Of a stretch of 64,000 nt of DNA, positions 17,507-35,442 are shown piece by piece; within the stretch, counting starts at the first letter, position 1; each line of letters begins with the position of its first letter. The position numbers and the translations under genes are program-made. The notes under the pieces are model-generated. The model did no database searches, had not been told where the DNA came from, and saw only the letters and a program-made list of their open reading frames with translations. This DNA is from Candidatus Daviesbacteria bacterium (GTDB lineage: Bacteria; Patescibacteriota; Microgenomatia; Daviesbacterales; UBA10151): the NCBI GenBank assembly GCA_028687915.1, contig JAQTZF010000001.1, forward strand, positions 802,634-866,633. Reading direction: 5' to 3'.

Positions 17507-18190
17507 TTACTGGAAAAGATCAACCTTACCCAATGGAGTGGATGAAGCACTTGATTCTGCCACAGACTGAATTTTATATTTAGACAAACTTTGAATTAAT
17601 GTATTCTCCTTTTCAGTAATCTCCGCAATTGGCTGATCCATTGTTAAAACAGTTGAAGGAGCTGCCTGATAATAAACACTTAAAGGAATATCTGCTACAA
17701 GTGATCCCTCTCCACTTTGAAACTTTAATGCGATTGATTCAACCTTAAACAACCGCGCAGCATCCTGCAGGCTATTTAAAAAATTCCTGGTGGCTGGCAG
17801 GGAACCTGCTACGGAAATAGCAAAGGAAAAATTTTCCTGGTTAGCAGTTTTGGCACTTGATGAATAAGAAGTACTTTTTAAAGTTAAATTTGATTTAGCA
17901 ACTAATTCCTGTAAAACTGCCATGGCCTGAGGGACATCACGTCCGGTTGGCAAAACAGTTAAGGCTGTAACTAAATCCTGTTCTAGTTTAGTTTGATCAA
18001 GGCTTTCTAACTCTGATGATTTTTTATTTAATAATTCAATTCTATTTAAAACTAAATCAGCTTTTTCTTTATCTTTAAAGAAATCCATCATTTGCGGAAT
18101 AATAACAAATATTATTATGGCTAAACAAATAAAACCTACTACAGAGGGGATAATATATATTCGATATTTAAGATAAAATTCTTTTACCAT
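17507..18190 (-). CDS. pilO: Type IV pilus assembly protein PilO-like
   Basis: N-terminal TM, coiled coil, location after pilM-pilN. Confidence 0.5.
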   Translation of the reverse strand: MVKEFYLKYRIYIIPSVVGFICLAIIIFVIIPQMMDFFKDKEKADLVLNRIELLNKKSSELESLDQTKLEQDLVTALTVLPTGRDVPQAMAVLQELVAKSNLTLKSTSYSSSAKTANQENFSFAISVAGSLPATRNFLNSLQDAARLFKVESIALKFQSGEGSLVADIPLSVYYQAAPSTVLTMDQPIAEITEKENTLIQSLSKYKIQSVAESSASSTPLGKVDLFQ

Positions 18191-18191
18191 T

Positions 18192-18743
18192 TTATTTTAC
18201 TGCAGCAATCCTCAACGAAAAACGATAGGTTGATTCTTTCCCCAAAGATATACCGGCTAAATCAACTTTAGATACCAAATTCATATTTGTTTCTTTATTG
18301 GAAAGGCCTAAAAAAAGCTTATCAATACCTGCAAGCGACTTACTGTTAAAGGAAGCCGTAATAGATCCATTCTTATCAACAGACACATCTGTTAAGGTTA
18401 CCTCCGGAGGTGTTAAATATACGATCAAATTAAACATCGTTTTGACCTTTTCATCAGTTCCAAGTTTTGATGAAATTGCATCTAATCTATTTTTCAGAGC
18501 ATATACTGCAACCTCTTTATTTCTAAATGATAAAACTTTATCTTCTGCAACCTTAACCTCATCCATCATCTTGCTACTTTCACGATTTTGGTTGATTCGA
18601 AGAAGCAATACACCCACGGTTAAAATAATCACCAAAACCAATACACCAATACTTAATTTATTAACCAAACTAAGCTTGCTGCTTTGAATTCTTTCTAATA
18701 ATACTGTTTGTGGTAATAAGTTAATAGAAATCTTATTCATCAC
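18192..18743 (-). CDS. pilN: Type IV pilus assembly protein PilN-like
   Basis: INLLP motif, single TM; 4-nt overlap with pilM. Confidence 0.55.
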   Translation of the reverse strand: MMNKISINLLPQTVLLERIQSSKLSLVNKLSIGVLVLVIILTVGVLLLRINQNRESSKMMDEVKVAEDKVLSFRNKEVAVYALKNRLDAISSKLGTDEKVKTMFNLIVYLTPPEVTLTDVSVDKNGSITASFNSKSLAGIDKLFLGLSNKETNMNLVSKVDLAGISLGKESTYRFSLRIAAVK

Positions 18744-19768
18744 TCTTCCCTTAGGGCTAAGCCTACAGCAATGGTATACTGGGCAGAATCAACAAGTTTT
18801 GAAGCAAGGGCTTTATCTTTACCAATAAAATACCAGGGATCAGCCTCCTGAATTTCCAATCCTAAGGTATTAGCAAAATATATTACCAAACCAGGTAATT
18901 TTGCTCCTCCTCCGGATAAAACAATTCTCTTAATCGGATTTTGAACATTTTTTGATTGGAATGCCTGAATCACTCTTTGCGCTTCAGATAAAATCATATC
19001 AATTAAAGGCTTCAGTACCTCATAAATCTTACCACCCAACTGATCTTCCAGTAATCCATAAACCTTTTTATATTCTTCTGCCTGAACTGGCTCAAAGTTT
19101 AAATATTGGGAAATTGCTCTGGTTAAAGCCATTCCACCTGTTCCAATAGATCTGGTCAATAAAATTAAACCTTTTGAAACAACAGCAAAGTCTGTGGAGT
19201 GAGATCCTAGCTGAACAATTAAAGTGGTTGGGGCATAAGGATTATTGCCTACCAAAGCCCTTGTGGCAGCAATTAATTCTGTTTCCAGGGCTTGAGGCTT
19301 TAATTTAACATAATCTAATACCTGTAAATATTTATTTACAGTATTTTTGGGAGATGCTACCACAAACACCGAGGTATTATTTTGAGGTTTAGACCGATTA
19401 ATAACCTGCCAATACAGGTTAACCTGATCAGCCGGCAGAGGAACAAATTCCTCAGCAGAGTAGTGAATAGAAGAAGATAATTCTTCATCAGATAAAAAGG
19501 GCAGGTCATTAATAACTCTGGTAAAAATTTTTGATTCAGGAAGGGCTAAAACTACTGGTAAATCTGGTGCTTTAATAGAGGTTAATAAGGTTTTAATTGC
19601 CTTAGCTTCTCCCTCTAAATCAAATGGATTTTCAGAACTTATTCCAGGCTGAGGCGCGGCAATAGACCCAAAAGACACTAAAGAAGCAGGCTTTGTTTTG
19701 TGGGACAAAACAACCGCTTTTATCGAAAAACTTCCAATATCTAATCCAATAGAATAATCTTGAGCCAT
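18740..19768 (-). CDS. pilM: Type IV pilus assembly ATPase-fold protein PilM
   Basis: Actin-like fold motifs (IGLDIGSFSIKAVV…; SGGGAKLPGL). Confidence 0.75.
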   Translation of the reverse strand: MAQDYSIGLDIGSFSIKAVVLSHKTKPASLVSFGSIAAPQPGISSENPFDLEGEAKAIKTLLTSIKAPDLPVVLALPESKIFTRVINDLPFLSDEELSSSIHYSAEEFVPLPADQVNLYWQVINRSKPQNNTSVFVVASPKNTVNKYLQVLDYVKLKPQALETELIAATRALVGNNPYAPTTLIVQLGSHSTDFAVVSKGLILLTRSIGTGGMALTRAISQYLNFEPVQAEEYKKVYGLLEDQLGGKIYEVLKPLIDMILSEAQRVIQAFQSKNVQNPIKRIVLSGGGAKLPGLVIYFANTLGLEIQEADPWYFIGKDKALASKLVDSAQYTIAVGLALREE

Positions 19769-19791
19769 AGGCAGTAATATTATTGTATCAT

Positions 19792-21558
19792 CTACTTTAT
19801 CTGATAGGTACCCTTAACAATTGAGTATGACCCGGATGGACCTGAACTAAAAAAGGGCGAAGAAAGCCCTGTATCATAATTGATTGTAACCCCATTATCC
19901 AACTTTACCTTCCAGGCAGTTAGCTCTGTTAAATGACTGACATTAGCAATATGTGCTATACCTAAACCCGCATATAGTATTCCCTGGCTTGTACTGTTAT
20001 TTACAGACAGAGCAGTCTGACCATTTACCCTGGAATCATAAGTAGTTAATACCATTATGTAACTTCCAGCAGTTCCTGAACCATTTATGTTTACATTATT
20101 TGCCATGGTAATTATTCCATCTACCACAATTACCCCTGATGATTCTGCATAATTTGAATTTAACCTTAATATACTATTGTTATTTAAATCTAAATTACCT
20201 GTAATCCAAATAGGATCATTGATTACCACATTACAACCATTAGCAAATGTAACATTCCCAACATATTTACCTGGTCCAAGAGTTGTTCTGCAACTGCTTA
20301 TATCTCCGGTGTAAACAACAGCATCCTGTGCCCGTTGTTTCCATTCAGAAATATTTCCTTCAGAAACAGGTAAGTTAGCAGGTAAGGGATCAGTGGAATT
20401 TGGATAATATTTAGCTGCAGTAATATTATTCTTAGTTTGATAATACGCAGAACCGGAAATAGCTAAGTTTTCTAAATTGTCAGCATGAGCACTGCCTCCG
20501 ATAGTTACACCAGGAGCCCCAATAATTGAAGTTACAACACCTCCCATATATGTTTTAAAATCAAGGTCATAAAGGGCAGAGGTCCAGACTGGATTTCTAA
20601 CAGACCAATTAGAAGACCAGGCTGTATTACCTCTGGTATAAGATTGTAAGGAATCAGCTGACCAAACCCAATAATTGCTATTATTAGATGAAGTATCCAG
20701 CATAATCCAATATGTAGTATCTAAAGAGAGACTAACAGGAGAATTAAATGTAATATCTACCCAATTATAGCTAGTGGTGACTAAATTTGCAGTTAAAGTA
20801 CCTGTTGTTAAAACATTACCTTTATCTGGTTTACCACCACTATCAGCCATTAACCGGACAACAATATCCGAAGGAGTACCAACCTTCTTAAGCCTTAACG
20901 ATATTTTATTAATATTACCGCTTATACTCGGTTTAAAACTTTGAGCAACATCCAATACATCATTTCCGGCAATGTTTTTCCCAAAAGTATAATCACTACA
21001 ACTTGGGCTGCTACAAATATTTTGCTGATCAGATAGAGGAGCGGTGCCACCGGCAACAAAAACATCACCGGTAATAAAGGCATTATTACTCATTGAAATA
21101 TTGCCATTTGAATAAACAGATCCATTAATACTGCTATTATTCTCCATCTCAAAGCCACCTTCTCCTACCAAAACACCATAATTAAAAGCATACCCCACAC
21201 CTTTGGAAGCAGTAATCTTTACTGTTTTTTGAGATTTTGGATTTTGCTTAGAAGGATAATAGCCAGTTGATTCAATAATTTTAGATGACTGATTAGGGCT
21301 GGTTACTTTAATAGAAACAGATCCATTATCTAAATTTAATTCTGTATCACCTGAATAAGAGCCCCCAAGGTTTAAAGAAGCCAGCGCCTTATCAACACCA
21401 GCTTCTGCTAAGTCTACTGCGTGAGTAGACTGAACAGAATAATATGTATTTTGAGAGTAAATATTTGCTCCGCCAATAATTGCCAAAGAGTTTAATAAGA
21501 CTAAACCTACAACAATAATTGCCAATACTAATACTTGTCCGGATTCACTTTTTTTCAT
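19792..21558 (-). CDS. Large (588 aa) pilus-associated protein with a prepilin-like N-terminus (SGQVLVLAIIVVGL, no Glu5) and a beta-helix-like repetitive body; putative tip adhesin
   Basis: N-terminal hydrophobic segment after Gly; Asn/Gly-rich turn repeats; position in the pilin gene array. Confidence 0.4.
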   Translation of the reverse strand: MKKSESGQVLVLAIIVVGLVLLNSLAIIGGANIYSQNTYYSVQSTHAVDLAEAGVDKALASLNLGGSYSGDTELNLDNGSVSIKVTSPNQSSKIIESTGYYPSKQNPKSQKTVKITASKGVGYAFNYGVLVGEGGFEMENNSSINGSVYSNGNISMSNNAFITGDVFVAGGTAPLSDQQNICSSPSCSDYTFGKNIAGNDVLDVAQSFKPSISGNINKISLRLKKVGTPSDIVVRLMADSGGKPDKGNVLTTGTLTANLVTTSYNWVDITFNSPVSLSLDTTYWIMLDTSSNNSNYWVWSADSLQSYTRGNTAWSSNWSVRNPVWTSALYDLDFKTYMGGVVTSIIGAPGVTIGGSAHADNLENLAISGSAYYQTKNNITAAKYYPNSTDPLPANLPVSEGNISEWKQRAQDAVVYTGDISSCRTTLGPGKYVGNVTFANGCNVVINDPIWITGNLDLNNNSILRLNSNYAESSGVIVVDGIITMANNVNINGSGTAGSYIMVLTTYDSRVNGQTALSVNNSTSQGILYAGLGIAHIANVSHLTELTAWKVKLDNGVTINYDTGLSSPFFSSGPSGSYSIVKGTYQIK

Positions 21559-22121
21559 ATATTCCTTAAGTTTGTTACTATTATTGAACTTCTGGATTTA
21601 TCAGAAACATTACTTCCGGGCAAAACAGTTATTTGAGTTTTAACTTTTTCTGCTGAAGTTGCAGTAACAATGTTATCGTTTTTATCAAGATATATAAACT
21701 CTACCGACTGCAAAATACTACTTAAAACTCTGTTTTGACTACTTCTGTCGCTTAAAGCATCAGGAAAAATATACTCCCAAAGCAAATTAGTTTTTGCATT
21801 ATCTTTTGTAAAAACTACATAATCATACGTATTAGCAATTACACCCAAAGCATTAAAGGCAGGAACTTTTAACACTAAAGTAGTACTGTTTGAAATATAC
21901 GTTGGAGAAACATCTGGATATCCACTAACCACTGACGATGCCTGACGAGTAAAGTTTTCAATTTCATGAATTGCATCATTAGTATTTAAACCGGATGTTA
22001 CCAAAGAACTCTGACTGTTATATATACCTGTATTATTAACTAAAATACCAGCCAGAACTGTACCAACTATTAAGAATATAGCTGTTACTATTAAAATCTC
22101 CACCAATGTAAATCCTTTCAT
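21555..22121 (-). CDS. Type IV pilin-like protein (MKGFTLVEILIV)
   Basis: Class III signal peptide G|FTLVE. Confidence 0.6.
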   Translation of the reverse strand: MKGFTLVEILIVTAIFLIVGTVLAGILVNNTGIYNSQSSLVTSGLNTNDAIHEIENFTRQASSVVSGYPDVSPTYISNSTTLVLKVPAFNALGVIANTYDYVVFTKDNAKTNLLWEYIFPDALSDRSSQNRVLSSILQSVEFIYLDKNDNIVTATSAEKVKTQITVLPGSNVSDKSRSSIIVTNLRNI

Positions 22122-22522
22122 TGACCTATTCCTCCTTCAGTAACCAAAGTTTCTAAACTTAATTCTTTAGTTTGCCCTTGTTCCTGCCAATTAATTTTAA
22201 CTTTAACTTTTTTTGCCTCTTCTCCGGATAAGCATACAGTTACAGGACAATCATCTATTTCGTATTCAGCTATGGAAGAGGGGAGCTTGGATAAGCTAAC
22301 ATCACTAAATGAGTTGGATCCATTTGATAAACTTTCATAAGGTTGTTTTCTAAAATAATCCAATTCTTTACTGGCAATTTCCCTGGCTAAAGAAACATTT
22401 CCACTGTGACTAATACTTTGAATAGAAGAGGGGAGAGAGGAAACAATTATTGCCAACACTGCAATTGCTCCAATCACTAAAATAAGCTCAATCAAAGAAA
22501 TTCCGCGCTCGTGGTTTCTCAT
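22118..22522 (-). CDS. Type IV pilin-like protein (ERGISLIELILVIG)
   Basis: Prepilin N-terminus with Glu5. Confidence 0.55.
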   Translation of the reverse strand: MRNHERGISLIELILVIGAIAVLAIIVSSLPSSIQSISHSGNVSLAREIASKELDYFRKQPYESLSNGSNSFSDVSLSKLPSSIAEYEIDDCPVTVCLSGEEAKKVKVKINWQEQGQTKELSLETLVTEGGIGQ

Positions 22523-23466
22523 TATTTAGTTAAATTATTTGCAGAAAATAAAACATAATCAAAGAAAAACGGCATTACGTTTTTATAACTTGTTACTTTA
22601 AGAGTTCTTTTTACTTCTCCGGAAGTACCATCAGAAGAATAAACAGTTGCCTGTTTAGGGAAAGAAGCTTCAGCAGTTGTTTCTGGCTTTAAAGCCACAT
22701 CATGATCAAGCTCTGAGTATAAGATTCTTACTCTGACTACAACCGGAAAAACAGTATCCGAATTTATAAAAGGTAGGGTAAATGTGGCTTTGCAATAATA
22801 ATCTTTTGAAGTTCCATCATTAATGTATGTTGTTGTATTTGTGTGATCACAACCACTAAATCCAGAACCTGCACGAAGCGGAGTAGGAACAAAACCATCT
22901 CTGTCTAAAAAAGAATCATAGTATTTTCTTGATGATTTATACTGCCCAGCTGTATTATCCCAATATATAACAGTAATCTCTATAGCAGGTTGATTATCAA
23001 GATTCCCAGGGGGAGAGGGGCGATAATTTGCATTAGGATCTCCAAAATAAAGATCAAATGAATTCCCGGTATATTTTTGAACAGTAATATTATTTGGATC
23101 TGCTAACCAAAATTGAGCAAAATTTCGTTTAGTTAAAGGCTCATCCCAGGCCAAAGCATAATTAGAAGCAGCAGGAATACTCATACCTGTAACTGCTCCT
23201 GCTGCCTGATTATTGCTTGAACTAAAGCCTGTCACCGGAAGATAAGTTCCTCCAATATTATTCTCATTAGCCTTCATTGCTCTTTCTATTGCAGCTTCTG
23301 CTGCAGAAAAAGCCCGGGACGAATCCTCACTTTTTCTTGATGTAGAAACCTCTAAAATACTTCTGCCAATAGTTGATAAACCAATAGCTAAAGCTACCAC
23401 CATGATCAGTAGTAATAAAATTACCACTTGTCCGGAACTATTCTGTTTAAAGGCTTGTTTATTCAT
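22522..23466 (-). CDS. GspK/PilX-like large minor (pseudo)pilin (314 aa, no Glu5)
   Basis: SSGQVVILLLLIMVVALAIG N-terminus; size and missing E5 as in GspK-type tip pseudopilins. Confidence 0.4.
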   Translation of the reverse strand: MNKQAFKQNSSGQVVILLLLIMVVALAIGLSTIGRSILEVSTSRKSEDSSRAFSAAEAAIERAMKANENNIGGTYLPVTGFSSSNNQAAGAVTGMSIPAASNYALAWDEPLTKRNFAQFWLADPNNITVQKYTGNSFDLYFGDPNANYRPSPPGNLDNQPAIEITVIYWDNTAGQYKSSRKYYDSFLDRDGFVPTPLRAGSGFSGCDHTNTTTYINDGTSKDYYCKATFTLPFINSDTVFPVVVRVRILYSELDHDVALKPETTAEASFPKQATVYSSDGTSGEVKRTLKVTSYKNVMPFFFDYVLFSANNLTK

Positions 23467-23468: not shown

Positions 23469-24197
23469 TTATCTGGAAATACCTCTTACTTGTACAGATG
23501 TTGAAAAAGGTATTCCACCTTCTACTACAGTAACATCATATGCGTATCCTGCAGAGACACCAGCTGAAGCATTAAATTTAACAAGTATATTGTCACCGTT
23601 TTTCTTAAATACATCTTCAAAAGTTCCTAAGCCAAGTGGGGTATAGCTTACTGAAACTCCGTTTACAGGGTCTGAATCAGTCAGGGATTGCTTATAATTA
23701 GTCCCACCGGTAATAAAATCCTGTGAAGAACAAAGACTAGAATCAAGAGTACCATCTGCTAAATCAGATCTGATAAAACTTATTTTTTGAATTTTACCAT
23801 TACTTGGAGGAGTACTCGTTAAATTTGGCGGAATAAATCTAAATTGAGTATAAGTCCCACCATTTGTTACCACTATAGTATTATTTACAACATTACTATC
23901 TGCAGCATCTATAAATTTTCCAACACAAACCACTCCATCAGCATTCCTAATTTCATTTGATAACTGATCCAAAACAACCTGACCATTTTGCTTAACTTGA
24001 TTTATAGCCTTAACTTTATTCCTTCCCCTTAAAGCATCAATTAGAATATTGGTAAAAATTACCCCTAAAATTACCATAATTGAAACAACTACTAAAAGTT
24101 CAATAATGGTGAAGCCATTACAAGATCTCCGACTTCGTCGGAACAGACCTATTATAGTAAATCCTTTAGAATTTTCTTCTTTATAAAATGCAGTCAT
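23469..24197 (-). CDS. Type IV pilin-like protein (NGFTIIELLVVVS); start uncertain
   Basis: Prepilin motif; the ORF extends further upstream, start trimmed to an internal Met. Confidence 0.5.
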   Translation of the reverse strand: MTAFYKEENSKGFTIIGLFRRSRRSCNGFTIIELLVVVSIMVILGVIFTNILIDALRGRNKVKAINQVKQNGQVVLDQLSNEIRNADGVVCVGKFIDAADSNVVNNTIVVTNGGTYTQFRFIPPNLTSTPPSNGKIQKISFIRSDLADGTLDSSLCSSQDFITGGTNYKQSLTDSDPVNGVSVSYTPLGLGTFEDVFKKNGDNILVKFNASAGVSAGYAYDVTVVEGGIPFSTSVQVRGISR

Positions 24198-24696
24198 AAT
24201 TTGGTTTAGTAATAATTGTCTCCAGGGTTGAATTATGATCTCCTGATGAATCACTCCAACTAATTATTGCAGTTACAGCAACCTCATTTGGAAAAGGTTG
24301 AGTTACTTTAATCTGTCTTAAAAATGACCCTGTTAAACTAACCACTGATGAAGCTAAAGTAACTTTGTTTAAAACAGTCCCAGTATTATTGAGGGAATAA
24401 TAACAATAACCACCAGCTCCACAATATAAAGGGTCACCAACACCTCCCCATAATTTGTTAAAGCAATAATATGTACCATCATCATTAATAGTACTCTCCT
24501 TATTATTATCTCTGAGTATTCTAATTCTATCAATTGTATCTTGAGCGTATTTAGTTGCCTGTGTCTGGTTTTGCGCAAATTGGGCATTCTTTAAGCTATT
24601 TAAAATAATAGCTATTAAGGCAATAATCATGATGGCAGAAACCACGCCTACCACTAGTACCTCAATTAAACTTTGTCCTGATTGTTTAGTATCCAT
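24181..24696 (-). CDS. Type IV pilin-like protein (MDTKQSGQSLIEVLVV); start uncertain
   Basis: Prepilin motif G|QSLIE. Confidence 0.5.
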   Translation of the reverse strand: MDTKQSGQSLIEVLVVGVVSAIMIIALIAIILNSLKNAQFAQNQTQATKYAQDTIDRIRILRDNNKESTINDDGTYYCFNKLWGGVGDPLYCGAGGYCYYSLNNTGTVLNKVTLASSVVSLTGSFLRQIKVTQPFPNEVAVTAIISWSDSSGDHNSTLETIITKPNYDCIL

Positions 24697-26280: not shown

Positions 26281-26763
26281 TTATTGAGAAGAAATACCCA
26301 TGTCACAATCTCCTCCACAACTGGATAATGGAACCAGGCTGGTATTTGCACAATCAATATTCGTATAAGTACTCTCTGAACCATCTTTTTTTGCACAAAG
26401 AACAAAACCAGTACAGGCTGTTGCCTGGGAAGTATTATTACAGCTTACCGGAGTTGCTGCATAAAAGTATCGCTTGTTGGGATTTATATCAATTGGAATC
26501 TGACTTAAATAAATTCGACTTCCATCATCAGAATCTAAGGGAGCAGTAATATCAGCTAAGTTTAAATCACCTGTAGCAGGGTATTTATGTTCATCGCTTC
26601 TATAAAGTTCTAAGGCTTGCTTTACTACCTGTAAATCCTTAATTCTTTGTCCATCTCTGACTTTAGCAGTAACACCACTATAAACAGCAAAACCAACAGT
26701 TGCCATAATAGCAAGAATTGATATAACCACAAGGAGTTCAATTACAGTAAAACCTCTTTTCAT
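26281..26763 (-). CDS. Type IV pilin-like protein (MKRGFTVIELLVVIS)
   Basis: Prepilin motif; C-terminal Cys pairs. Confidence 0.55.
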   Translation of the reverse strand: MKRGFTVIELLVVISILAIMATVGFAVYSGVTAKVRDGQRIKDLQVVKQALELYRSDEHKYPATGDLNLADITAPLDSDDGSRIYLSQIPIDINPNKRYFYAATPVSCNNTSQATACTGFVLCAKKDGSESTYTNIDCANTSLVPLSSCGGDCDMGISSQ

Positions 26764-27260
26764 GGTGCTTGAACTTGATAAGTTGATGCGGGAGCTGATA
26801 CCGGTGCTGTAGAGCATAGAGAGAGGGAGGGTGTAGTAGCGTTTGAACTATTCTCTAATGTTGCATATAAACAGTAATTTATACAACGAGTAGTAGTGTT
26901 ATCACAAGAGACAACTGATGGCCCAGTAACATTAGAGGCTGTATAAGAATATGTTCCTGAAGCAGGAAGTGGCATTTTTGAAATATATACTTTTGATCCA
27001 AAAGAAATAGTACTACTGCTTGTAAAGGTAATACTGGCAGTAGTAGGGTAATAACCTTGATCAGCATGGTATTGTTCTAAGGCAGACTGGATAGTTGAAA
27101 TATCAGATTTTCTCTTATTATCCCTAGCATTTTTTTGAAGGTTTTGAAAAGAAATAATTGCAATAGTCATTAAAACAGCTAAGATAGAAATTGTTACTAA
27201 TAGCTCTATAAGAGTGAAGCCTTTACTTCTCGCTTGTGCACTAAACCCCTTTTCCCTCAT
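26760..27260 (-). CDS. Type IV pilin-like protein (KGFTLIELLVTIS)
   Basis: Prepilin motif. Confidence 0.55.
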   Translation of the reverse strand: MREKGFSAQARSKGFTLIELLVTISILAVLMTIAIISFQNLQKNARDNKRKSDISTIQSALEQYHADQGYYPTTASITFTSSSTISFGSKVYISKMPLPASGTYSYTASNVTGPSVVSCDNTTTRCINYCLYATLENSSNATTPSLSLCSTAPVSAPASTYQVQAP

Positions 27261-27287: not shown

Positions 27288-28931
27288 TTATTTTAGACTT
27301 ACCTTGTATAAGTTACATTTACCATCACATCCATCTGCTACTTTATCCAGACGAAAGTAATAATTAATTTTCATTAAGTCAAAAGAATATACAAAGTTCG
27401 GATCAGTTTTAAATGCAGAAACATATAGTGAATAGCCAGAATTTAAATACTTTCTATATAAGTTTATCAAGTCAGAGTAGTCATCTGTTCCCCATGCAGC
27501 ATCCGCAATACCCATAAACACCTGTCTTTGTGATAACGGTAGTAACTTATAATTAGGTTTTTCATAATAATCAAATAAATAAGGGGGAATTACAGATATA
27601 ATAACTACCTTTTTACTGTTTGTTAAACCTTTAAAGCTACTATTCAATGTTTTTATCACAAGTCGGTTAGAATCGCCTTTAATTAAGTTGTTTTTACCGG
27701 TTAATTCATTAACTACAGGTGGCACCTGACTAAAGAGAATGAAGCCTGCAATAATAACTGCGGTTAAGTATATTAAATATAATTTATCTTTACCTTGAAA
27801 AAAAATCCATAACCGATCTACAAAAATTGCAAAACTTAAAATAAGTACAGGAATAACAAAGAATATATACCTACCCTCTACAATGTAAAAAAATAAACAA
27901 AAAATCAAAGTACTCATAAATGTTAATAAAAAGTACGATGTAATAAGTCTATACTCTTTATTAAAGGGATTAAGAAACAAACCAATTAAACCAAGCATCC
28001 CAATAATAGGGGATGCAATAATTAAACCTTGCCCTGCTGTAGTTAATTCTCCACCTAATATACCTGCCAAATATTGATAAAGGTTAAAGTCGATATTTGC
28101 AATATCCATATAGCCAACAAGAGGCAGACTAAGCTGACTAGAACCAGTTACACCGAAATTAAAAAAACGGAATATATCAGATAGCGGCCATATATGAGAG
28201 CCTTTAGTGTAATATTCAATTAAATCAAAAAATAATAAGGGAACAGTAATAGAAAGGATAAAGATAAACAAACTAGTAATTAGTTTCTTTTTATTTTTAA
28301 TTGATAAAGATATTTTTAAAAAATAACTAGCTGCTAATATACCGCTAACTATAATTTCAACGTATTTTGTAGCATAAAGACAAATTACAACCAAACCAGC
28401 TACAATTATATTTCGTTTATTTACTTCACTTATTAATAACCAAACGGACAAAAGATATAAAAACAAAAATAAGTTCTCTGCCATTGCAGCAGAGGGATAC
28501 CAGTACAAAGCAATATTTGTACAAAAAGCAAAGAATGAAAGCACTTTTAATATAGGATTTAGTTTAAGCTTAGATAATAAAAGGTAGAATAAAACTGCCG
28601 AAAGCAAGCTTAATACAACATTTGCAAAATAATATGTTCGGGCATCATTATTAATAAGATAATAAGGAGCTAAATACAAAGAATAGAGTGGGGGTACTGC
28701 CGCGCTTGCTGACCTACCTTCATAATATAAGTTTAAGCCAAAGCCTAAAGCTAAACTACGAGCAGGAGTAACATAATGAATTGCATCAGGTAAAGGTAAA
28801 AAATCTGAAATAATATTCTCATCCGAATAAGGATTCTTCAGAAGAAGCAAAAATAATAAGAAAATAATTAACAGGATTAAAACCGAACTTATTTCATAAC
28901 GAAATTTATATAAAAAGGAGAACAATTTCAA
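27288..28931 (-). CDS. Polytopic GT-C fold glycosyltransferase (PMT/ArnT GT39/GT83-like); candidate pilin O-glycosyltransferase
   Basis: More than 10 TM segments, DE motif in the first extracytoplasmic loop (YSDENIISDF), embedded among pilin genes. Confidence 0.45.
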   Translation of the reverse strand: MKLFSFLYKFRYEISSVLILLIIFLLFLLLLKNPYSDENIISDFLPLPDAIHYVTPARSLALGFGLNLYYEGRSASAAVPPLYSLYLAPYYLINNDARTYYFANVVLSLLSAVLFYLLLSKLKLNPILKVLSFFAFCTNIALYWYPSAAMAENLFLFLYLLSVWLLISEVNKRNIIVAGLVVICLYATKYVEIIVSGILAASYFLKISLSIKNKKKLITSLFIFILSITVPLLFFDLIEYYTKGSHIWPLSDIFRFFNFGVTGSSQLSLPLVGYMDIANIDFNLYQYLAGILGGELTTAGQGLIIASPIIGMLGLIGLFLNPFNKEYRLITSYFLLTFMSTLIFCLFFYIVEGRYIFFVIPVLILSFAIFVDRLWIFFQGKDKLYLIYLTAVIIAGFILFSQVPPVVNELTGKNNLIKGDSNRLVIKTLNSSFKGLTNSKKVVIISVIPPYLFDYYEKPNYKLLPLSQRQVFMGIADAAWGTDDYSDLINLYRKYLNSGYSLYVSAFKTDPNFVYSFDLMKINYYFRLDKVADGCDGKCNLYKVSLK

Positions 28932-28939: not shown

Positions 28940-29395
28940 TTAATTAGCTTGCGTTGAGGAACAAACCACCTGTGGTGATACTGTAGTATCTTCTAATGAA
29001 GCACAAACTCTGATTTTGGCAGCACCAGCTGCGGGTACACCATTGCCCATAACAGCCCAACTTCCAGAACAACCACCTGTTGCCCAGGCTGTTGGATCAG
29101 TAGCAAAAGCTGCTCCGCTAGAAGCTGCTGTTGTTACACAGTAATTCTTACCTGTAACTGGATCAGTAGGTACCTTACCAGGAGTAAACAAAGTATCAAC
29201 TAACGCAGGGAATACGGCATTATCAGCTCCTTTTGCTACATCTAATGCTTTTGTTACTTCATGTACATCAGATCTTCTTTTTGCGTCTCTGCCTTTGCTT
29301 TGAACACTTGAGAAAACTGCCATACCAATTGTTGCAAGAATTGCTAAAATTGCGATAACTACCAGAAGTTCAATTAAGGTAAAACCTTTTTTCAT
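28940..29395 (-). CDS. Major type IVa pilin paralog 1 (151 aa)
   Basis: MKKGFTLIELLVVIAILAILATIG; C-terminal Cys pair. Confidence 0.7.
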   Translation of the reverse strand: MKKGFTLIELLVVIAILAILATIGMAVFSSVQSKGRDAKRRSDVHEVTKALDVAKGADNAVFPALVDTLFTPGKVPTDPVTGKNYCVTTAASSGAAFATDPTAWATGGCSGSWAVMGNGVPAAGAAKIRVCASLEDTTVSPQVVCSSTQAN

Positions 29396-29398: not shown

Positions 29399-29884
29399 CT
29401 AATTAGCTTGCGTTGAGGAACAAACCACTTGTGGTGATGCTGTGGTATCTTCTAATGAAGCACAAACTCTGATTTTAGCAGCACCAGCTGCTGGTACACC
29501 ATTTGTCAAAAGTGCCCAACTTCCAGAACAACCACCTGTTGCCCAGGCTGTTGGATCAGTAGCAAAAGCTGCTCCGCTAGAAGCTGCTGTTGTTACACAG
29601 TAATTCTTACCTGTAACTGGATCAGTAGGTACCTTACCAGTTGTAAATTGTGTATCAAGTACTGCTGGAAATGTAGCATTATCAGCTCCTTTTGCTACAT
29701 CTAATGCTTTTGTTACTTCTGCAACATCTTGTCTTCTTTTAGCATCTCTGCCTTTGCTTTGAACACTTGAGAAAACTGCCATACCAATTGTTGCAAGAAT
29801 TGCTAAAATTGCGATAACTACCAGAAGTTCAATAAGTGTGAAACCTTGAGTATTTGTTGATGTCTTGGGCAGAACTTTTTTCAT
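29399..29884 (-). CDS. Major type IVa pilin paralog 2 (161 aa); tandem near-duplicate of 28940-29395
   Basis: Same N-terminus; long identical DNA tracts with paralog 1. Confidence 0.7.
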   Translation of the reverse strand: MKKVLPKTSTNTQGFTLIELLVVIAILAILATIGMAVFSSVQSKGRDAKRRQDVAEVTKALDVAKGADNATFPAVLDTQFTTGKVPTDPVTGKNYCVTTAASSGAAFATDPTAWATGGCSGSWALLTNGVPAAGAAKIRVCASLEDTTASPQVVCSSTQAN

Positions 29885-29932
29885 TTATTTTTCTTTATCT
29901 TTCTCATTATTGTCATAGGGCAATATACTCTG

Positions 29933-30862
29933 TCAATACCCCAGTTTGAAGCTATTTAAATACCAATTTAGAATTTGAGGACCCCAAAGCAGGGCAATAT
30001 AAGCCCCAAGACTTAAGAAAGGACCAAAGGGAATTGTTTGTCCAAAATGCTTTTTACCAAAACCCATAAGAATGACGGAGAAAACTGCTCCTATTAGAAA
30101 AGCCAGAAATAAACCAATGATGGCATTAGGAAAACCCAATGCAATTCCTAAAAATAAAACATATTTAACATCACCCCAACCCATCCCTCTTCCTTTGGTT
30201 ATTATTATAAGAAAAGCAAAGAATAAAGCAGAAACTATTCCTATAATAATAGAGAAAATCGCTGGTTCCCAAATTCTGTAAATTAAAGTCCAAAAATAAT
30301 TAGAGTATGGAGGCATCAAATACTTACCAAGAAAGTTAGATTTTAAACTTAAATAAAACAACCAGGAATTCAAGCCACAAGCCACTAACCAATACCCAAT
30401 AGCTATACCCACAGCAGGATAGGTAACCTTATCCGGCAATAATCCTGTTTTAATATCCGTCAGAAAGAGAATGAATAAAACTAAAACAATAAATATTTTA
30501 AATATAAAATTTAAAATAAGTGGTATTGATTGGACTGTAGGATTTAAAAGAATATTAAAATCAAAGGCTTGAGTTAAAAAAAGACCTGCAACTAAAAACC
30601 CCATCACTAATTCTGCAGCTAGATTGGTAAAAGGGATTGATTTACGACAATATCTACATTTACCAAGTAACATAATGTAGGAAAAAACAGGAAAGAGGTC
30701 GTACCATGCAAGTATATGTTTACACTTTACGCAATACGACCTTCCCCTCAAACTATCCTGCTTGTTTAGCCGATCGGCTACAGCTTTAGCAAAACTTCCT
30801 AAAATTGTACCTATCAAAAAGCCAAAAAAACTTAAACCAATCCACATAATTAATAAGTACAA
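29933..30862 (-). CDS. pilD: Prepilin peptidase / N-methyltransferase PilD (A24 family)
   Basis: CxxC…CxxC zinc site, GMGWGDVKYVLFLG catalytic motif, 8 TM. Confidence 0.8.
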   Translation of the reverse strand: MYLLIMWIGLSFFGFLIGTILGSFAKAVADRLNKQDSLRGRSYCVKCKHILAWYDLFPVFSYIMLLGKCRYCRKSIPFTNLAAELVMGFLVAGLFLTQAFDFNILLNPTVQSIPLILNFIFKIFIVLVLFILFLTDIKTGLLPDKVTYPAVGIAIGYWLVACGLNSWLFYLSLKSNFLGKYLMPPYSNYFWTLIYRIWEPAIFSIIIGIVSALFFAFLIIITKGRGMGWGDVKYVLFLGIALGFPNAIIGLFLAFLIGAVFSVILMGFGKKHFGQTIPFGPFLSLGAYIALLWGPQILNWYLNSFKLGY

Positions 30863-31404
30863 GCAAGCAACATATTAGAACCAACTTCATAAGACAAAGG
30901 ATCTGTTCCTCCGTCATTTGCTCTTCTGTCATTTGGAGCTGTTGTTTGTTGTTCAGATTCTAAATGTGTCATTATCTTCCAATGCGTTCCAGACCCACAA
31001 TATGTGTAATGTAAGGGTGTGGTATTTGTCGGATCTACTGGTAAGGTAGGCACTGTAACGTTTGATTGACCAGCAAAGTTAATGCTAACCCAACCTCCGC
31101 CATTAGTAAGCCTCTTAGTAGTATTTCCTGCTGGAATAATACTATTGTCTGTACAAGTTACGTCTGGAGTACCACTATTACATGCCGGACTTGCCTGACC
31201 TGCTGCTGTACCTTCCTGTAAAGCAACATTAATTGCTTGTTGGATGTTTGCCAAGTCAGTTAATCTGGAGGCATCCCTTGTTCTTCTTGTAAGTTCCAAT
31301 GGATTAATAATAAGTACTACGACCGCTGCTAAAATTGCAATAATTGCAATAACGACTAAAAGTTCTACAAGTGTAAAACCACGGGCAGTTTTTTTCAAAT
31401 TCAT
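30850..31404 (-). CDS. Type IV pilin (ARGFTLVELLVVIAIIAILAAVVV)
   Basis: Prepilin motif. Confidence 0.6.
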   Translation of the reverse strand: MNLKKTARGFTLVELLVVIAIIAILAAVVVLIINPLELTRRTRDASRLTDLANIQQAINVALQEGTAAGQASPACNSGTPDVTCTDNSIIPAGNTTKRLTNGGGWVSINFAGQSNVTVPTLPVDPTNTTPLHYTYCGSGTHWKIMTHLESEQQTTAPNDRRANDGGTDPLSYEVGSNMLLACTY

Positions 31405-31472: not shown

Positions 31473-32681
31473 CTATTTTATGTTTGTAGTTAACTGGTAA
31501 ATTGGTAAAATAATTGATACTACTAAAAAGCCTACCCCAATACCTAAAATCACTAAAACAACTGGTTCAATTAATGTTGTTATATTCTTTAATGAATTAT
31601 CTGATTCTGATTCAAAATAATCAGCTAATTTAAACATGATTTCATCTAACTTCCCAGTCTCCTCACCGGTTTTTATCATCTGTCCGATAATACGGGGGAA
31701 TTCTGGCAACCTAAGCACCTGGCTGGAGAAAGACAAACCTCTTTCAACTCCCTGATAAGCTAATATCAATCCATCTTGATAAACTCTGTTACCGGTAATT
31801 GCAGAAACAATTTTAATTGAGTCCAAAATCGAAAGGCCGGAAGAAACCAATAATCCAAAAGTCCTGGTAAAACTTGTTAAGATAACCAAAGAAGTAATTT
31901 TACCAATTGCCGGTGCTTTTAATAAAAACTCGTCAACCCGTAAGCGACCATCCTGGGTTTGTGAATACCTTCTAAATGATACTAAAGCTACTACAATTAC
32001 TACTAATATTAACCACCAATAACCTAACATAAAATTTGAAAAACCCATTAAAATCTTTGTTGGCAGCGGTAATTCTATATTTGAGTCACCATATAAACTT
32101 AAAAGCTTTGGCATCACAAAAAATACCATAATTAGCATGACCCCAACCATCATTGTTACCACGACGATTGGATAAATCATGGCACCTCTGATTTTTCCCT
32201 TAAACTCCCTTTCTTTTTCTAAATTATTAGCCAGCTGAAGTAATATAATATCTAACTTTCCTGATGCCTGACCTGCAGCAACCAACTGACCATATATCGC
32301 AGGAAAAACATCCGGATGTTTTTGCAATGCTGCTGCAAAATCCAAACCACCTTTAATATCTGCCAATATATCTATTAATACTTTTTTAAATTTCTTATTT
32401 TCCTGTTGGTCTTGCAAAATATCCAAAGCCTCAGATAAAACAAGACCAGCTTGTACCATAGTTGCCAGCTGTCTTGTCATAACAACTACCACACTAAAAG
32501 GTATTCTGTTAAAGTATTTATCAAATAAATTTTCCTGATTTTTATTCTTCTCTTTTATGGAAATAATAATCAGTCTTTTGCGACGCAAAAGCGTGGCTGC
32601 CTGAAACTGATCAACAGTCTCAACTTCACCTTTGTGATATTCTCCATTCATATCCTTGGTTGTGTAAGAAAATATAGGCAT
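31473..32681 (-). CDS. pilC: Type IV pilus platform protein PilC (GspF family)
   Basis: GspF-type duplicated domain architecture with TM segments. Confidence 0.8.
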   Translation of the reverse strand: MPIFSYTTKDMNGEYHKGEVETVDQFQAATLLRRKRLIIISIKEKNKNQENLFDKYFNRIPFSVVVVMTRQLATMVQAGLVLSEALDILQDQQENKKFKKVLIDILADIKGGLDFAAALQKHPDVFPAIYGQLVAAGQASGKLDIILLQLANNLEKEREFKGKIRGAMIYPIVVVTMMVGVMLIMVFFVMPKLLSLYGDSNIELPLPTKILMGFSNFMLGYWWLILVVIVVALVSFRRYSQTQDGRLRVDEFLLKAPAIGKITSLVILTSFTRTFGLLVSSGLSILDSIKIVSAITGNRVYQDGLILAYQGVERGLSFSSQVLRLPEFPRIIGQMIKTGEETGKLDEIMFKLADYFESESDNSLKNITTLIEPVVLVILGIGVGFLVVSIILPIYQLTTNIK

Positions 32682-32685
32682 AATA

Positions 32686-33738
32686 TTACCCTAAGATTTT
32701 GGCTAACAAATCTGGCCGCAGGCTATAAGCCTGACCCATTTCAAGAGAGATTTTTCCTTCCCGAACTAATTTAGCAAGAGAAGCTTCCATTGAAACCATT
32801 CCTAATTCACCGGAGGTTTGAATTAAGTTATCAATCATGTGAGTTTTTGCATCTCTGATTAATGAAGAAAGAGCATTAGTTTTAAGCAGTAGCTCAACTG
32901 CCAAAGCCCTGCCAGGAACAATTGTTGGGATTAGTCTTTGTGAAATAATTGCTTCAAGTACTGCTGCCAGCTGCAGCCTGATCTGTGGTTGTTGATTTTG
33001 GGGAAAAACATCAATCATTCTGTCAATGGATTGCGCAGCAGAATTAGTGTGTAGCGTAGCAAAAACCAAATGACCTGTTTCAGCTATAGTTATTGCAGCA
33101 GCAATGGTTTCATAATCACGCATTTCTCCAACTAAAACCACATCAGGATCTTCCCGAAGAGCAGATCTCAAAGCATTAGGCCAGGTTTTAGTATCCAAAA
33201 GAAGTTCTCTTTGCGTCACGATAGACTTTCCCTTGGGATAAATATATTCGATTGGATCTTCTATAGTTAATATATTTGCGTTGTGTTTTAAATTAATTTG
33301 ATTAATCATGGAAGCTAAAGTGGTAGATTTACCATGCCCGGTTGGACCAGTAATTAAAATAAAGCCCTGGCGGGGAACAATCAATTTATTAGCTACTTCA
33401 GGCAAACCCAAAGTAGACATCTCCGGAATCTGAAGAGGAATTAGCCTTAAAGCAGCTGCTAAATGCCCCTGTTCTTTAAATAAATTAATTCTAAATCTGG
33501 CTTTATCTTCAAATGAAAAACCAAAATCAAGTTCAAAATTTTCATCAAAAGCTTTTTTTTGAACAACAGATAAAAGTGGAGTGACTAAACCAAGTATGTC
33601 AGCATCAAGAAGGGGGGTAGTACCAGTAATTGGCAATAACTCTCCATTTAAACGAAGTGAGGGAGGATATCCGACCACTAAATGTAAATCTGATGCTTTC
33701 CTGGCAACTGCAATGTCTAATAATTGATGTATATTCAT
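32686..33738 (-). CDS. pilT: Twitching-motility / retraction ATPase PilT
   Basis: Walker A GPTGHGKSTT; PilT-length GspE-family ATPase. Confidence 0.8.
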   Translation of the reverse strand: MNIHQLLDIAVARKASDLHLVVGYPPSLRLNGELLPITGTTPLLDADILGLVTPLLSVVQKKAFDENFELDFGFSFEDKARFRINLFKEQGHLAAALRLIPLQIPEMSTLGLPEVANKLIVPRQGFILITGPTGHGKSTTLASMINQINLKHNANILTIEDPIEYIYPKGKSIVTQRELLLDTKTWPNALRSALREDPDVVLVGEMRDYETIAAAITIAETGHLVFATLHTNSAAQSIDRMIDVFPQNQQPQIRLQLAAVLEAIISQRLIPTIVPGRALAVELLLKTNALSSLIRDAKTHMIDNLIQTSGELGMVSMEASLAKLVREGKISLEMGQAYSLRPDLLAKILG

Positions 33739-35442
33739 TTATTCCTCTGCAACCCTCAAAACCTCCTCTAAACTGGTAGTTCCTTCTAAAGCTTTCATAT
33801 AACCATCTTGTTTCAAAGTAATCATTCCTTCTTTTATAGATTCTTCTTCAATAGCCTGAGACGAGGCTCTTTCCAGTACCATTGGCATAATTTTAGAGGA
33901 AACAACTAATACTTCATAAATACCTATTCTTCCCTGATAACCTGTTCCACCACATTCTGCACAACCTGTTCCTTTATAAAGTATGATTGGTTTTTCTTTT
34001 GGATAGAGATTTCCCAATACTCTTCTAAAATTTTCAGCAATCTCAGGCACAGGAGTATAAGTACTCTTGCAATGAGTACAAAGTTTTCTTAATATCCTTT
34101 GTCCAACACAAGCGTTGATAGAGGAAGCCAAAAGAAATGGCTCAATACCCATATCTAAAAGTCGGGGAAGCGCACCGGCAGCAGTATTTGTATGAAGTGT
34201 AGAAAAGACCTGATGCCCTGTTAAAGCAGCCTGAACAGCTAACTCTGCTGTCTCTGTGTCACGAACCTCTCCTACTAACATAATATTAGGATCTTGTCGT
34301 AAAAATGAACGCAAAGCAGAAGCAAAAGTTAAACCTATTGCCGGATTAACCTGAACCTGATTTGCTCCGGGAATTTGATACTCAACCGGATCTTCTACTG
34401 TAACCATATTTACTTTTGTGGTTGATAATCTGGTTAGAACAGAATATAAAGTTGTTGTTTTACCACTACCCGTTGGTCCGCAAATTAAAACAATACCATG
34501 TGGCCTAAGTATTTGTGTTTCAAAATTCTTTAATGCAATGCCACGAAGACCAAGTTCTTGCAAAGTAGGGGGGACAGTAGTTTTTGGCAATAACCTCATA
34601 ACCACTTTCTCACCATAGATTGTAGGAACTGTTGAAACACGAAGGTCATAAATATCCTTCCCAGCACTGTAACTAAAACGTCCATCCTGAGGTAAACGTT
34701 TTTCCTCAATTTTTAGATTTGACAGGATTTTAATTCGTGAGACAAGAGCATCATGCACAGTTCTTGGTAAAATAATCTTTTCATGCAAGATACCATCAAT
34801 ACGATAACGAACCCTGGTCCGATCATCCAGTGGTTCTATATGAATATCAGAAGCTCTGGATGAAACAGCAAACTGAAGAAGTTGGGTAATAATATTTGCC
34901 ACCGGAGCTTCATGAATAACTTCAGCTTTCTCTTCAACAGCTGTTTCCGTAGCCTGAAGTTCACTTACTTCCTTTAAAGCAGAAGTTACCTCAGAAGTTA
35001 AATTTTGAGAATACTGGTCTCCAATAGCCTTCATAATATCTTCCGGAACAGCCAGATAAGGCTTTACATACAGAGCGGATTTTTTCTCAATAAACTGAAT
35101 TACCTGTAAATCCAGAGGGTCAGCCATAGCAACAAATAATTTATCGCCCTTTTTATCAAATGGAATAATTCGATAGCGCCTGGCAACTACTTCAGGTACG
35201 AAATTTAATACTTCTGAAGAGACGGCTTTTCCTTCCAGATTAATAAAAGGCACACCCATCAAAGATGCTCGGGCAGCAGTCATTTTTGCAGGAGCTACGA
35301 GCTGATGTTGGGTAATTACCTGTTCTGTAGAGGAACCACTGTTAATGGATTCTAGTTTAACTGCAGATAGTTGTTGAGCTGTAAGTAAGCCTTGTTTAAA
35401 TAAAACATCTTCAATGCCAAATTGTTCTTGGGCAGTAGCCAT
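33739..35442 (-). CDS. pilB: Type IV pilus assembly ATPase PilB (GspE family)
   Basis: Walker A GPTGSGKTTT, tetracysteine motif CTHCK…CAECGGTG, N1/N2 domains. Confidence 0.85.
   Translation of the reverse strand: MATAQEQFGIEDVLFKQGLLTAQQLSAVKLESINSGSSTEQVITQHQLVAPAKMTAARASLMGVPFINLEGKAVSSEVLNFVPEVVARRYRIIPFDKKGDKLFVAMADPLDLQVIQFIEKKSALYVKPYLAVPEDIMKAIGDQYSQNLTSEVTSALKEVSELQATETAVEEKAEVIHEAPVANIITQLLQFAVSSRASDIHIEPLDDRTRVRYRIDGILHEKIILPRTVHDALVSRIKILSNLKIEEKRLPQDGRFSYSAGKDIYDLRVSTVPTIYGEKVVMRLLPKTTVPPTLQELGLRGIALKNFETQILRPHGIVLICGPTGSGKTTTLYSVLTRLSTTKVNMVTVEDPVEYQIPGANQVQVNPAIGLTFASALRSFLRQDPNIMLVGEVRDTETAELAVQAALTGHQVFSTLHTNTAAGALPRLLDMGIEPFLLASSINACVGQRILRKLCTHCKSTYTPVPEIAENFRRVLGNLYPKEKPIILYKGTGCAECGGTGYQGRIGIYEVLVVSSKIMPMVLERASSQAIEEESIKEGMITLKQDGYMKALEGTTSLEEVLRVAEE

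Follow-up and report, generated by a model that had tools for sequence, protein, structure and literature searches.

We analyzed a 64-kb stretch of DNA from Candidatus Daviesbacteria (assembly GCA_028687915.1, contig JAQTZF010000001.1), called the window in what follows, which carries a type IV pilus locus at positions 17507-35442 and extends 17.5 kb and 28.5 kb past it. The locus consists of 20 consecutive open reading frames (ORFs), all on the minus strand and separated by intergenic gaps of -74 to +68 nucleotides (nt). Genes for the pilus motors, the platform protein and the prepilin peptidase are followed by a series of pilin-like genes, among them one for a pilin with two lectin modules, with a gene for a predicted GT-C-fold membrane glycosyltransferase embedded in the series, and finally by pilM, pilN and pilO (Table 1). 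An earlier note on this DNA had given this order and strand correctly, apart from omitting the two minor pilin genes of 134 and 188 amino acids (aa) that lie between its 'GspK-like' gene and the gene of the 588-aa protein. Pfam searches were performed with 47 ORFs of the window, that is, every non-overlapping ORF of at least 100 aa plus one of 87 aa.

Table 1. Features of the pilus locus, in window coordinates, and loci of relatives cited in the text (↓, prepilin motif between positions -1 and +1)
Feature	Position	Strand	Length (aa)	Evidence and remarks
Candidate promoter-like site TTGACA-17-AATAAT	35481..35509	-		60-nt divergent gap upstream of pilB; 11/12 consensus, best in region
PilB extension ATPase	33739..35442	-	567	Pfam T2SSE 9.6e-128 (426 bits) and N-terminal MshEN/T2SSE_N 3e-18
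PilT retraction ATPase	32686..33738	-	350	Pfam T2SSE 7e-46 (157 bits), core domain alone
PilC platform protein	31473..32681	-	402	Pfam T2SSF 5e-59 (198 bits), two repeats
Conserved pilin, RG↓FTLVE	30850..31404	-	184	Between pilC and pilD; N_methyl 35.7 bits, above cutoff
PilD prepilin peptidase/N-methyltransferase	29933..30862	-	309	A24_N_bact 7e-23 (80.9 bits) and Peptidase_A24 3.6e-9 (37.4 bits)
Candidate promoter-like site	29936-29909			Precedes first of the two 92%-identical short pilins; consensus scan
Candidate major pilin, copy 1, QG↓FTLIE	29399..29884	-	161	N_methyl 34.5 bits, above cutoff; 14-residue leader ending in Gly
Candidate major pilin, copy 2	28940..29395	-	151	N_methyl 33.5 bits, above cutoff; 4-residue leader
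GT-C-fold membrane glycosyltransferase, candidate pilin glycosyltransferase	27288..28931	-	547	Fold prediction
Conserved pilin, KG↓FTLIE	26760..27260	-	166	N_methyl 35.8 bits, above cutoff, and T2SSG 22.2 bits; ortholog in 53 related loci
Pilin	26281..26817	-	178 (ORF)	N_methyl 26.5 bits at residues 20-41, above cutoff; 58-nt overlap
Modular lectin-pilin	24686..26245	-	519	N_methyl 23.0 bits, above cutoff; two F5/8-type-C (CBM32) domains, 1.6e-42
PilV-like minor pilin, SG↓QSLIE	24181..24750	-	189	TIGR02523 PilV N terminus 5.7e-11, below cutoff; ortholog in 57 loci
Minor pilin, NG↓FTIIE at ORF residue 47	23469..24254	-	261	N_methyl 26.7 bits, above cutoff; ortholog in 54 loci
PilX/GspK-type minor pilin without E5, SG↓QVVIL, AEAA motif	22522..23466	-	314	PilX_N 22.4 bits versus cutoff 25.5 (sub-threshold)
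Small minor pilin, RG↓ISLIE	22118..22522	-	134	N_methyl 19.3 bits versus cutoff 21.2 (just below); triad member 1
Minor pilin, KG↓FTLVE	21555..22121	-	188	N_methyl 22.6 bits, above cutoff; triad member 2
Pilin-like protein without E5, candidate tip or priming subunit	19792..21558	-	588	PilX_N-type N terminus, AlphaFold, NF041539
PilM actin-like ATPase-fold alignment protein	18740..19768	-	342	PilM_2 3.4e-46 (158 bits), full length
PilN, bitopic	18192..18743	-	183	N-terminal INLLP motif; homology and position kept in 58 related loci
PilO	17507..18190	-	227	PilO 25.9 bits versus cutoff 22 (1e-5); T2SSM_b 23.7 bits
Relatives with another GT-C protein in the variable slot	L006:1206-4724, L007:3094-5247, L026:2189-5609, L027:1780-5267, L056:1799-5247	mostly opposite		
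Relatives with Laminin_G_3 or DUF1554/endostatin-like pilins	L010:52-5886, L024:271-1488, L028:3913-4830, L029:3490-4614, L047:4572-5657			

The proteins of the assembly machinery were readily assigned. PilB harbors the Walker A motif GPTGSGKTT and a C-terminal tetracysteine motif (CxxC...CxxC). Its N-terminal match covers the generic T2SSE N-terminal domain only, and we do not claim that PilB is an MshEN-type receptor of cyclic di-GMP. The size of the second ATPase and its missing N-terminal domain are typical of PilT. PilD contains the cysteine pairs CVKC...CRYC and the sequence GMGWGD. PilN had no hidden Markov model (HMM) match in Pfam or NCBIfam. An ORF on the plus strand at 18298-18687 is antisense to pilN and was set aside as spurious.

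Prepilins were called by two routes, namely N_methyl matches judged against the Pfam gathering cutoff and direct reading of the motif of class III signal peptides, with glycine at position -1 and glutamate at position +5 (E5). The motif route identified 12 prepilin-like genes and the strict N_methyl HMM 8, in agreement with the 'ten or more' announced before; two further pilin calls stand by motif or by a TIGRFAM match. The motif G↓(F/Q/I)xxxE was read in the translations of 10 proteins, while the 314-aa (G↓QVVIL) and 588-aa (G↓QVLVL) proteins are prepilin-like and lack E5, as had been noticed earlier. These two proteins have homologous N termini (30% identity over 70 aa, E 2e-8). A PDB search with the 314-aa protein found no sequence match. 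The name 'GspK-like' that this protein had received draws only on the missing E5, which is correct, and on a sub-threshold PilX_N score.

In the 178-, 189- and 261-aa ORFs, the start of the longest ORF overlaps the preceding gene by 58-74 nt and the prepilin motif lies 20-47 residues in; therefore, the real start codons of these three genes are probably internal. The 178-aa ORF probably begins at the internal Met of MKRG↓FTVIE, and its 58-nt overlap would then disappear. The 189-aa ORF, which had no Pfam match and reads SGQSLIEVLVV, likely also starts at an internal Met. The 261-aa ORF carries a second, degenerate motif (KGFTIIG) upstream of the real NGFTIIE.

The two short pilins that follow pilD are 92% identical, and the PDB matches of the 161-aa copy are Geobacter, PilA and PilE pilins. 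Given their size, duplication and position, we read them as the probable filament subunits. The 184-aa pilin has an ortholog in 46 related loci (median identity, 54%). A promoter scan of the region gave 67 sites compared to 70 expected from shuffled sequence, that is, no excess, which leaves just two candidate sites, one upstream of pilB and one upstream of the short pilins.

Neither a secretin (PilQ) nor PilP was found by Pfam among the 47 ORFs, which reach 17-28 kb to either side of the locus, in line with what the earlier note had stated for the locus itself. This absence is expected for the monoderm form of the pilus found in the candidate phyla radiation (CPR), and a secretin-less type IV pilus encoded at a single locus was reported in the Microgenomates genome Ch65, from which the same conclusion on the cell envelope was drawn (PMC7143001). 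No comEC or comEA gene was found within the window.

Several pilins score against the N termini of GspG, GspH and GspJ (NCBIfam) and against T2SSG (Pfam), and pseudopilin-like minor pilins have also been remarked in the saccharibacterium TM7x (PMC11623550). The product of the locus could thus be a pseudopilus like that of type II secretion, or some other type IV filament, serving protein export across the wall instead of forming a long adhesive pilus. We consider this highly improbable. The Gsp scores all fall well short of the equivalog cutoffs and span just the shared N-terminal helix, the T2SSM_b match falls on a protein whose PilO score is higher, and PilT and PilM-N-O are present, whereas Pfam detected no GspL, GspM, GspC or GspD homolog at the locus. 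Furthermore, the 519-aa pilin with lectin modules described below makes sense on an exposed filament, which argues for such a filament rather than for a secretion pseudopilus.

Conservation of the operon and its variable segment

We scanned the GTDB species representatives with the family of the 588-aa protein, which gave 80 loci (numbered with the prefix L), called their ORFs and compared these with the window proteins by phmmer and BLASTP. About 60 genomes of Daviesbacteria type share a fixed order, PilB-PilT-PilC-184-aa pilin-PilD-variable pilins-166-aa pilin-'lecN' pilin-189-261-314-134-188-588-PilM-PilN-PilO, in which the 'lecN' position is held in the window by the 519-aa pilin. In these genomes the block lies between gyrB/holB and trmD/rpsP, the latter pair being on the opposite strand. 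The flanks of the window locus are likewise made of housekeeping genes according to Pfam, with a class I Trp/Tyr-type tRNA synthetase, recG, nusB, rnc, rpsP and trmD on one side and holB, gyrB, murC/D, ddl, def, gyrA, ruvC and others on the other side. A metagenomic relative (L086) has matching flanks on both sides. Since gene order and housekeeping flanks recur in about 60 related genomes, the locus is the ordinary, vertically inherited pilus operon of the lineage and no island. Calling the apparatus 'specialised', as had been done, was therefore an overstatement. The episymbiotic or DNA-scavenging lifestyle that it was said to serve is conjectural.

Many metagenome-assembled genome (MAG) records labeled 'binchicken' and titled 'uncultured Gammaproteobacteria bacterium' (L010, L012-L017 and others) carry pilus loci and flanks of Daviesbacteria type; because of this, record titles are unreliable as taxonomy.

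The complete set of machinery genes with strong HMM scores, the 12 prepilin motifs and the conserved order between housekeeping flanks lead us to conclude, with considerable confidence, that the window carries a chromosomal, vertically inherited type IVa-like pilus operon of Ca. Daviesbacteria (Microgenomates, CPR/Patescibacteria), built as in monoderms.

The segment between PilD and 'lecN' varies between relatives. In the 40 loci with an ortholog of both, it measures 516-5202 bp and contains one to six pilins; the window slot is at the elaborate end, with four pilins and the GT-C gene in about 3.7 kb. In one relative (L048:2957-4345), an IS66-family transposase gene is inserted in this slot, which is consistent with a recombination-prone site.

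A lectin-bearing pilin and a predicted membrane glycosyltransferase

The 519-aa protein is composed of a pilin domain, a Pro/Thr linker, a CBM32 module, a second linker and a second CBM32 module. F5_F8_type_C (145 bits) and F5_F8_type_C_2 (145 bits) match above the curated cutoff, in two copies, which bears out the earlier description of a lectin-pilin. The two modules, which together span residues about 241-519, share about 65% identity and are about 55% identical, over the whole module, to the likewise tandem DD1 and DD2 of the GH8 chitosanase/glucanase of Paenibacillus sp. IK-5 (4zy9, 2rv9; E 2.5e-37). DD1 and DD2 were experimentally shown to bind chitosan (PMC5635096); they are carried by a glycoside hydrolase (GH), whereas the window modules are carried by a pilin. 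The best database relatives of the tandem pair are located at the ends of GH16, GH46, GH18 and beta-1,3-glucanase enzymes from Actinobacteria, Chloroflexi and Paenibacillus.

In the 80 species-representative loci, the orthologous pilin has 144-251 aa and never carries an F5/8-type-C domain (0 of 80). The tandem-CBM32 pilin is thus rare by sequence comparison. That it is unique was ruled out, since a second lineage (JGI 3300014208, contig of 191,802 bp), represented by L086 (10001-11572) and L087 (9689-11260), encodes at the orthologous position a 523-aa pilin with two F5/8-type-C domains that is 44% identical over its full length; this lineage has matching flank genes and no GT-C gene. Recent horizontal transfer of the modules was also rejected, as their GC content at third codon positions (0.26-0.29) is inside the range of the locus (0.15-0.29). 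Other relatives have pilins of 305-510 aa with ConA-like (Laminin_G_3) or DUF1554/endostatin-like modules in the variable slot. Together with the tandem-CBM32 pilin of L086/L087, these make lectin-module pilins, as predicted from their domains, a recurring theme.

The 547-aa membrane protein is 100% identical to PHQ59_04500, annotated as a hypothetical protein of a Ca. Daviesbacteria MAG on a contig of 1,096,538 bp. Neither its single sequence nor a profile found a match in Pfam, NCBIfam or the PDB, and the family is small, with 27 homologs found. An AlphaFold model built on 25 homologs (predicted local distance difference test [pLDDT] 84.6, predicted TM-score [pTM] 0.85) was compared with the PDB by Foldseek. 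The top 21 matches were all GT-C enzymes (best E 1.7e-6, TMq 0.55-0.57), including ArnT, ALG9/12, STT3, PglB, AftA/B, Pmt4 and Emb. Moreover, an Asp in a PxPD motif (PLPD in the window) directly after the first transmembrane (TM) helix is invariant in 25 of 25 family members, and sequence and model place it in what would be the first external loop. GT-C enzymes carry a catalytic acidic residue in that place. The 21 best matches and the invariant Asp indicate that the GT-C assignment made by the earlier note, for which there is no match at the sequence level, is right, the predicted fold confirming it.

The gene of TfpW, a pilin arabinosyltransferase of Pseudomonas, directly follows pilA, and the protein combines about 11 TM helices with a DDX motif and TPR repeats (bioRxiv 10.1101/2020.04.19.049825). 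The window protein resembles TfpW and TfpO of P. aeruginosa (group IV pilA-tfpW and group I pilA-tfpO) in that its gene lies beside a candidate major pilin gene, in a variable, strain-specific neighborhood, and in its acidic motif, which would face the outside in the same loop. However, it has no sequence similarity to known families, Pfam found on it neither the C-terminal TPR domain of TfpW nor the Wzy_C domain of TfpO, and unlike both it ends in a small alpha/beta domain with an invariant CxxxC.

In five relatives, the slot contains non-orthologous GT-C proteins, which are either PMT_2 proteins or multi-TM proteins with the motif FAWDD and C-terminal TPR repeats. The TPR-bearing form, found in L006, L007, L026 and L056, has the architecture of TfpW. 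These repeated insertions of non-orthologous GT-C genes beside candidate major pilins are the best argument for pilin glycosylation, which we propose as the likely role of the window protein. In the full-text literature that we searched, whose coverage is incomplete, a single CPR paper raised the glycosylation of pilins, naming no enzyme and only as a prediction.

The 588-aa protein and the conserved triad

The 588-aa protein is 100% identical to PHQ59_04455, also annotated as a hypothetical protein, and has more than 740 homologs. Among 38 of these, G7 and Q8 are nearly invariant and LAEAG..K is invariant. In the AlphaFold model (pLDDT 82.9), a helix of 58 residues is accompanied by a small sheet, by successive short strands suggestive of a beta-solenoid, and by an inserted beta-sandwich. 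The earlier description as a 'beta-helix giant' is consistent with this pattern of secondary structure, but it missed that the protein is pilin-like, with a PilX_N-type N terminus, and that a sandwich is inserted in it. The sandwich matches the NCBIfam model choice-of-anchor R (NF041539; 48.7 bits versus a cutoff of 30), and Foldseek located it in phage baseplate, tail and receptor-binding proteins (local matches, E 2e-6 to 3e-8).

The gene of the 188-aa pilin adjoins the 588-aa gene in 77 of the 80 loci, and that of the 134-aa pilin lies upstream of both in loci of Kaiserbacteria, Paceibacterota and Doudnabacteria too. The triad is thereby kept in these groups, as well as in MAGs with Saccharibacteria record titles, with 35-40% identity for the 588-aa protein. 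We suspect that the latter is homologous to PilX1 of TM7x. A homolog with 50% identity (L020:10001-11761) lies outside a recognizable pilus locus in a Daviesbacteria MAG and is possibly a second copy.

We read the 588-aa protein as a probable tip or priming subunit. Among the top Foldseek matches, the only near-full-length alignments were to Thermus ComZ chains, and these were weak (6qvi, E 1.8e-3, probability 0.63); ice-binding-protein solenoids such as FfIBP were also found, and ice-binding proteins are the nearest folds of ComZ itself (PMC6561018). Like ComZ in the ComZ-PilA2 tip complex of T. thermophilus, the 588-aa protein is a large GspK/PilX-like pilin without E5 and with a bulky beta-rich domain, it is too large for the filament body, and its gene comes just after that of a small minor pilin. 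Unlike ComZ, it has the additional choice-of-anchor-R sandwich resembling phage tail and receptor-binding domains; the similarity in fold is marginal, and PDB searches with the single sequence and with the family profile gave no usable match and revealed no sequence link between the two. Among the matches listed in our full-text literature search, whose coverage is incomplete, none linked ComZ to the CPR.

These findings raise the alternative that the system is primarily a competence pilus, in which the triad would form a ComZ/PilA2-like DNA receptor at the tip and retraction by PilT would deliver DNA to ComEA/ComEC for nucleotide scavenging. Besides the N terminus, the solenoid-like strand pattern and the ComZ and ice-binding matches, this alternative is favored by the conservation of the 588-aa protein, the best conserved extracellular component, which would fit an invariant ligand such as DNA; it has a median identity of 49% among Daviesbacteria and of 38% in other phyla of the CPR, compared to 30-41% for the pilins, a comparison biased by the fact that the loci were picked through the 588-aa protein. 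Work on Saccharibacteria weakens it, since there the pilus is essential independently of comEC (PMC10633639) and T4P-2 mutants transform normally (PMC11623550, PMC10633639). We consider a primary role in competence unlikely and retain adhesion as the preferred function.

Proposed function and neighboring features

Homology assigns the machinery proteins their roles: PilD as the enzyme that would cut and N-methylate about ten prepilins, PilB, PilC and PilM-N-O as the apparatus that would build a filament from them at the cytoplasmic membrane, and PilT as the motor that would retract it. The filament body would consist of the two short pilins after pilD, whereas the minor pilins (189, 261, 314, 134 and 188 aa) and the 588-aa protein would prime its assembly and come to lie at the tip. 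With its two CBM32 modules, the 519-aa pilin would attach to a glycan carried by another cell or by a polymer surface. The GT-C protein, with a polyprenyl-phosphate-linked sugar as the donor, would glycosylate pilins on the outer side of the membrane, like TfpW and TfpO in Pseudomonas. Overall, the pilus would provide retractile adhesion to a partner cell or surface, and twitching on it, with DNA capture as a possible second function. Adhesion, DNA uptake and pilin glycosylation are thus what we infer from the genes.

Several points weigh against this picture. For this organism, expression, filament and binding are all predicted, and the choice of the major pilins draws on size, duplication and position only. 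Sequence gives no indication of which glycan the CBM32 modules would bind. Additionally, a large multi-TM protein is present in the slot of only about 8 of the approximately 47 loci that cover it; therefore, glycosylation, if real, would be optional. Lastly, homologs of the GT-C protein at 30-36% identity are found in surface-polysaccharide clusters, next to GT2, GT4, epimerase, PMT_2 and Polysacc_synt genes, and not in pilus loci, indicating that the family is not dedicated to pilins.

The GT-C gene might then be unrelated to the pilus and encode an envelope glycan enzyme, a passenger in a recombination-prone slot. The genomic company of these homologs fits such an origin, as do the IS66 transposase accepted by the slot of L048 and the lack of a comparable GT-C gene in most related loci. 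We regard this as doubtful, although it deserves consideration. At least three non-orthologous types of GT-C protein (the window family, PMT_2 and the TPR-bearing TfpW-like proteins) share the slot in separate lineages, and a fourth, unclassified large multi-TM protein was found there as well. The window gene starts 8 nt after the second candidate major pilin gene and ends 27 nt before the next pilin gene on the same strand, an arrangement for which pilA-tfpW and pilA-tfpO are an established precedent. A relative with a 54%-identical GT-C protein also keeps the gene beside pilins. We thus continue to favor a pilin glycosyltransferase.

The kind of system described here is already known. The type IV pili of Saccharibacteria, which are essential, serve in host binding and twitching and have large lectin-like minor pilins (PMC11623550, PMC10633639), and secretin-less CPR pili encoded at a single locus have been described before. 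The window operon shares with the pili of Nanosynbacter lyticus TM7x (T4P-1 and T4P-2), Southlakia epibionticum and Ch65 the proteins PilB, PilT, PilC, PilD and PilM, small major pilins, many minor pilins and the lack of PilQ. It also shares large proteins without E5 or of non-canonical 'PilX' type with beta-sandwich lectin-like domains (PilX1 and PilX2 in TM7x). Like Ch65, it has a single locus of this kind, an 18-kb operon, whereas TM7x has two systems encoded at four loci; the tandem-CBM32 pilin and the embedded GT-C gene set the window apart from these CPR pili. The monoderm pili of Streptococcus sanguinis are similar in being secretin-less, in using PilT and in having pilins with grafted adhesin or lectin modules, namely PilB with a vWA module and PilC with a ConA-like lectin module (10.1101/2021.01.27.428410). 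ConA-like modules are shared with S. sanguinis PilC by relatives of the window locus. The tandem CBM32 modules with Pro/Thr linkers are different, and a sequence relationship is detectable in the N-terminal helix only.

Type IV pili are among the few tools of episymbiotic CPR life with experimental support, so far in Saccharibacteria only. Our analysis leaves the current picture unchanged and adds detail to it: as predicted from its genes, a single operon of an uncultivated Microgenomates lineage provides a complete pilus system, retractile and without a secretin. The modestly new details are a GT-C family that no model describes, a variable slot with lectin pilins and GT-C genes, a tandem-CBM32 pilin and a 588-aa protein spread across the CPR. 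They offer candidates for a pilus ligand (the tandem-CBM32 pilin), for pilin glycosylation in the CPR (the GT-C protein) and for the role of the conserved large tip protein. Speculatively, the triad could be a CPR-wide ComZ/PilA2-like tip complex that recognizes DNA or a universal cell-wall glycan, in either case an invariant ligand, and the segment from pilD to the conserved pilins a diversification cassette that swaps lectin pilins and GT-C genes. Taken jointly, we find these two proposals improbable. If the first held, it would link the pilus to nucleotide scavenging; if the second did, swaps of CBM32, ConA-like and DUF1554 pilins and of unrelated GT-C proteins would set host range and phage evasion.

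Outside the pilus locus, Pfam also detected the families DUF5663 and DUF5656 in the window, and tRNA and Rfam scans of the whole window returned nothing. On the plus strand, the AT skew stays at or above approximately zero even over the 18 kb of all-minus genes, while the GC skew changes sign with the orientation of the genes, a pattern reminiscent of the strand composition disparity described in Ch65 (PMC7143001). The region 2675-11668 (plus strand) looks like an envelope glycopolymer module by its gene content, with a 1134-aa ORF lacking a Pfam match and a 1214-aa ORF matching only Glyco_transf_9 (34.1 bits, residues 393-557), both followed by a 657-aa LytR_cpsA_psr protein. At 49687-54567 (minus strand), genes for two small proteins with cohesin domains (231 and 209 aa) lie together with those for an 852-aa protein that has a sub-threshold C-terminal dockerin match (21.8 versus 22.9 bits) and, after these genes, a 230-aa Pro/Thr-rich protein; a XerC-like integrase gene adjoins (48762-49685). 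This group may represent a cohesin-dockerin surface assembly in a CPR genome. A 91-aa ORF (54904-55179) has an N terminus that looks GIY-YIG-like by eye, and the following approximately 840 bp (55180-56022) hold no ORF of at least 45 aa and gave no Rfam or tRNA match. Finally, the match to the DNA_topoisoIV domain in GyrA (45862-48471) is split into two stretches, possibly because of an insertion in the catalytic domain.

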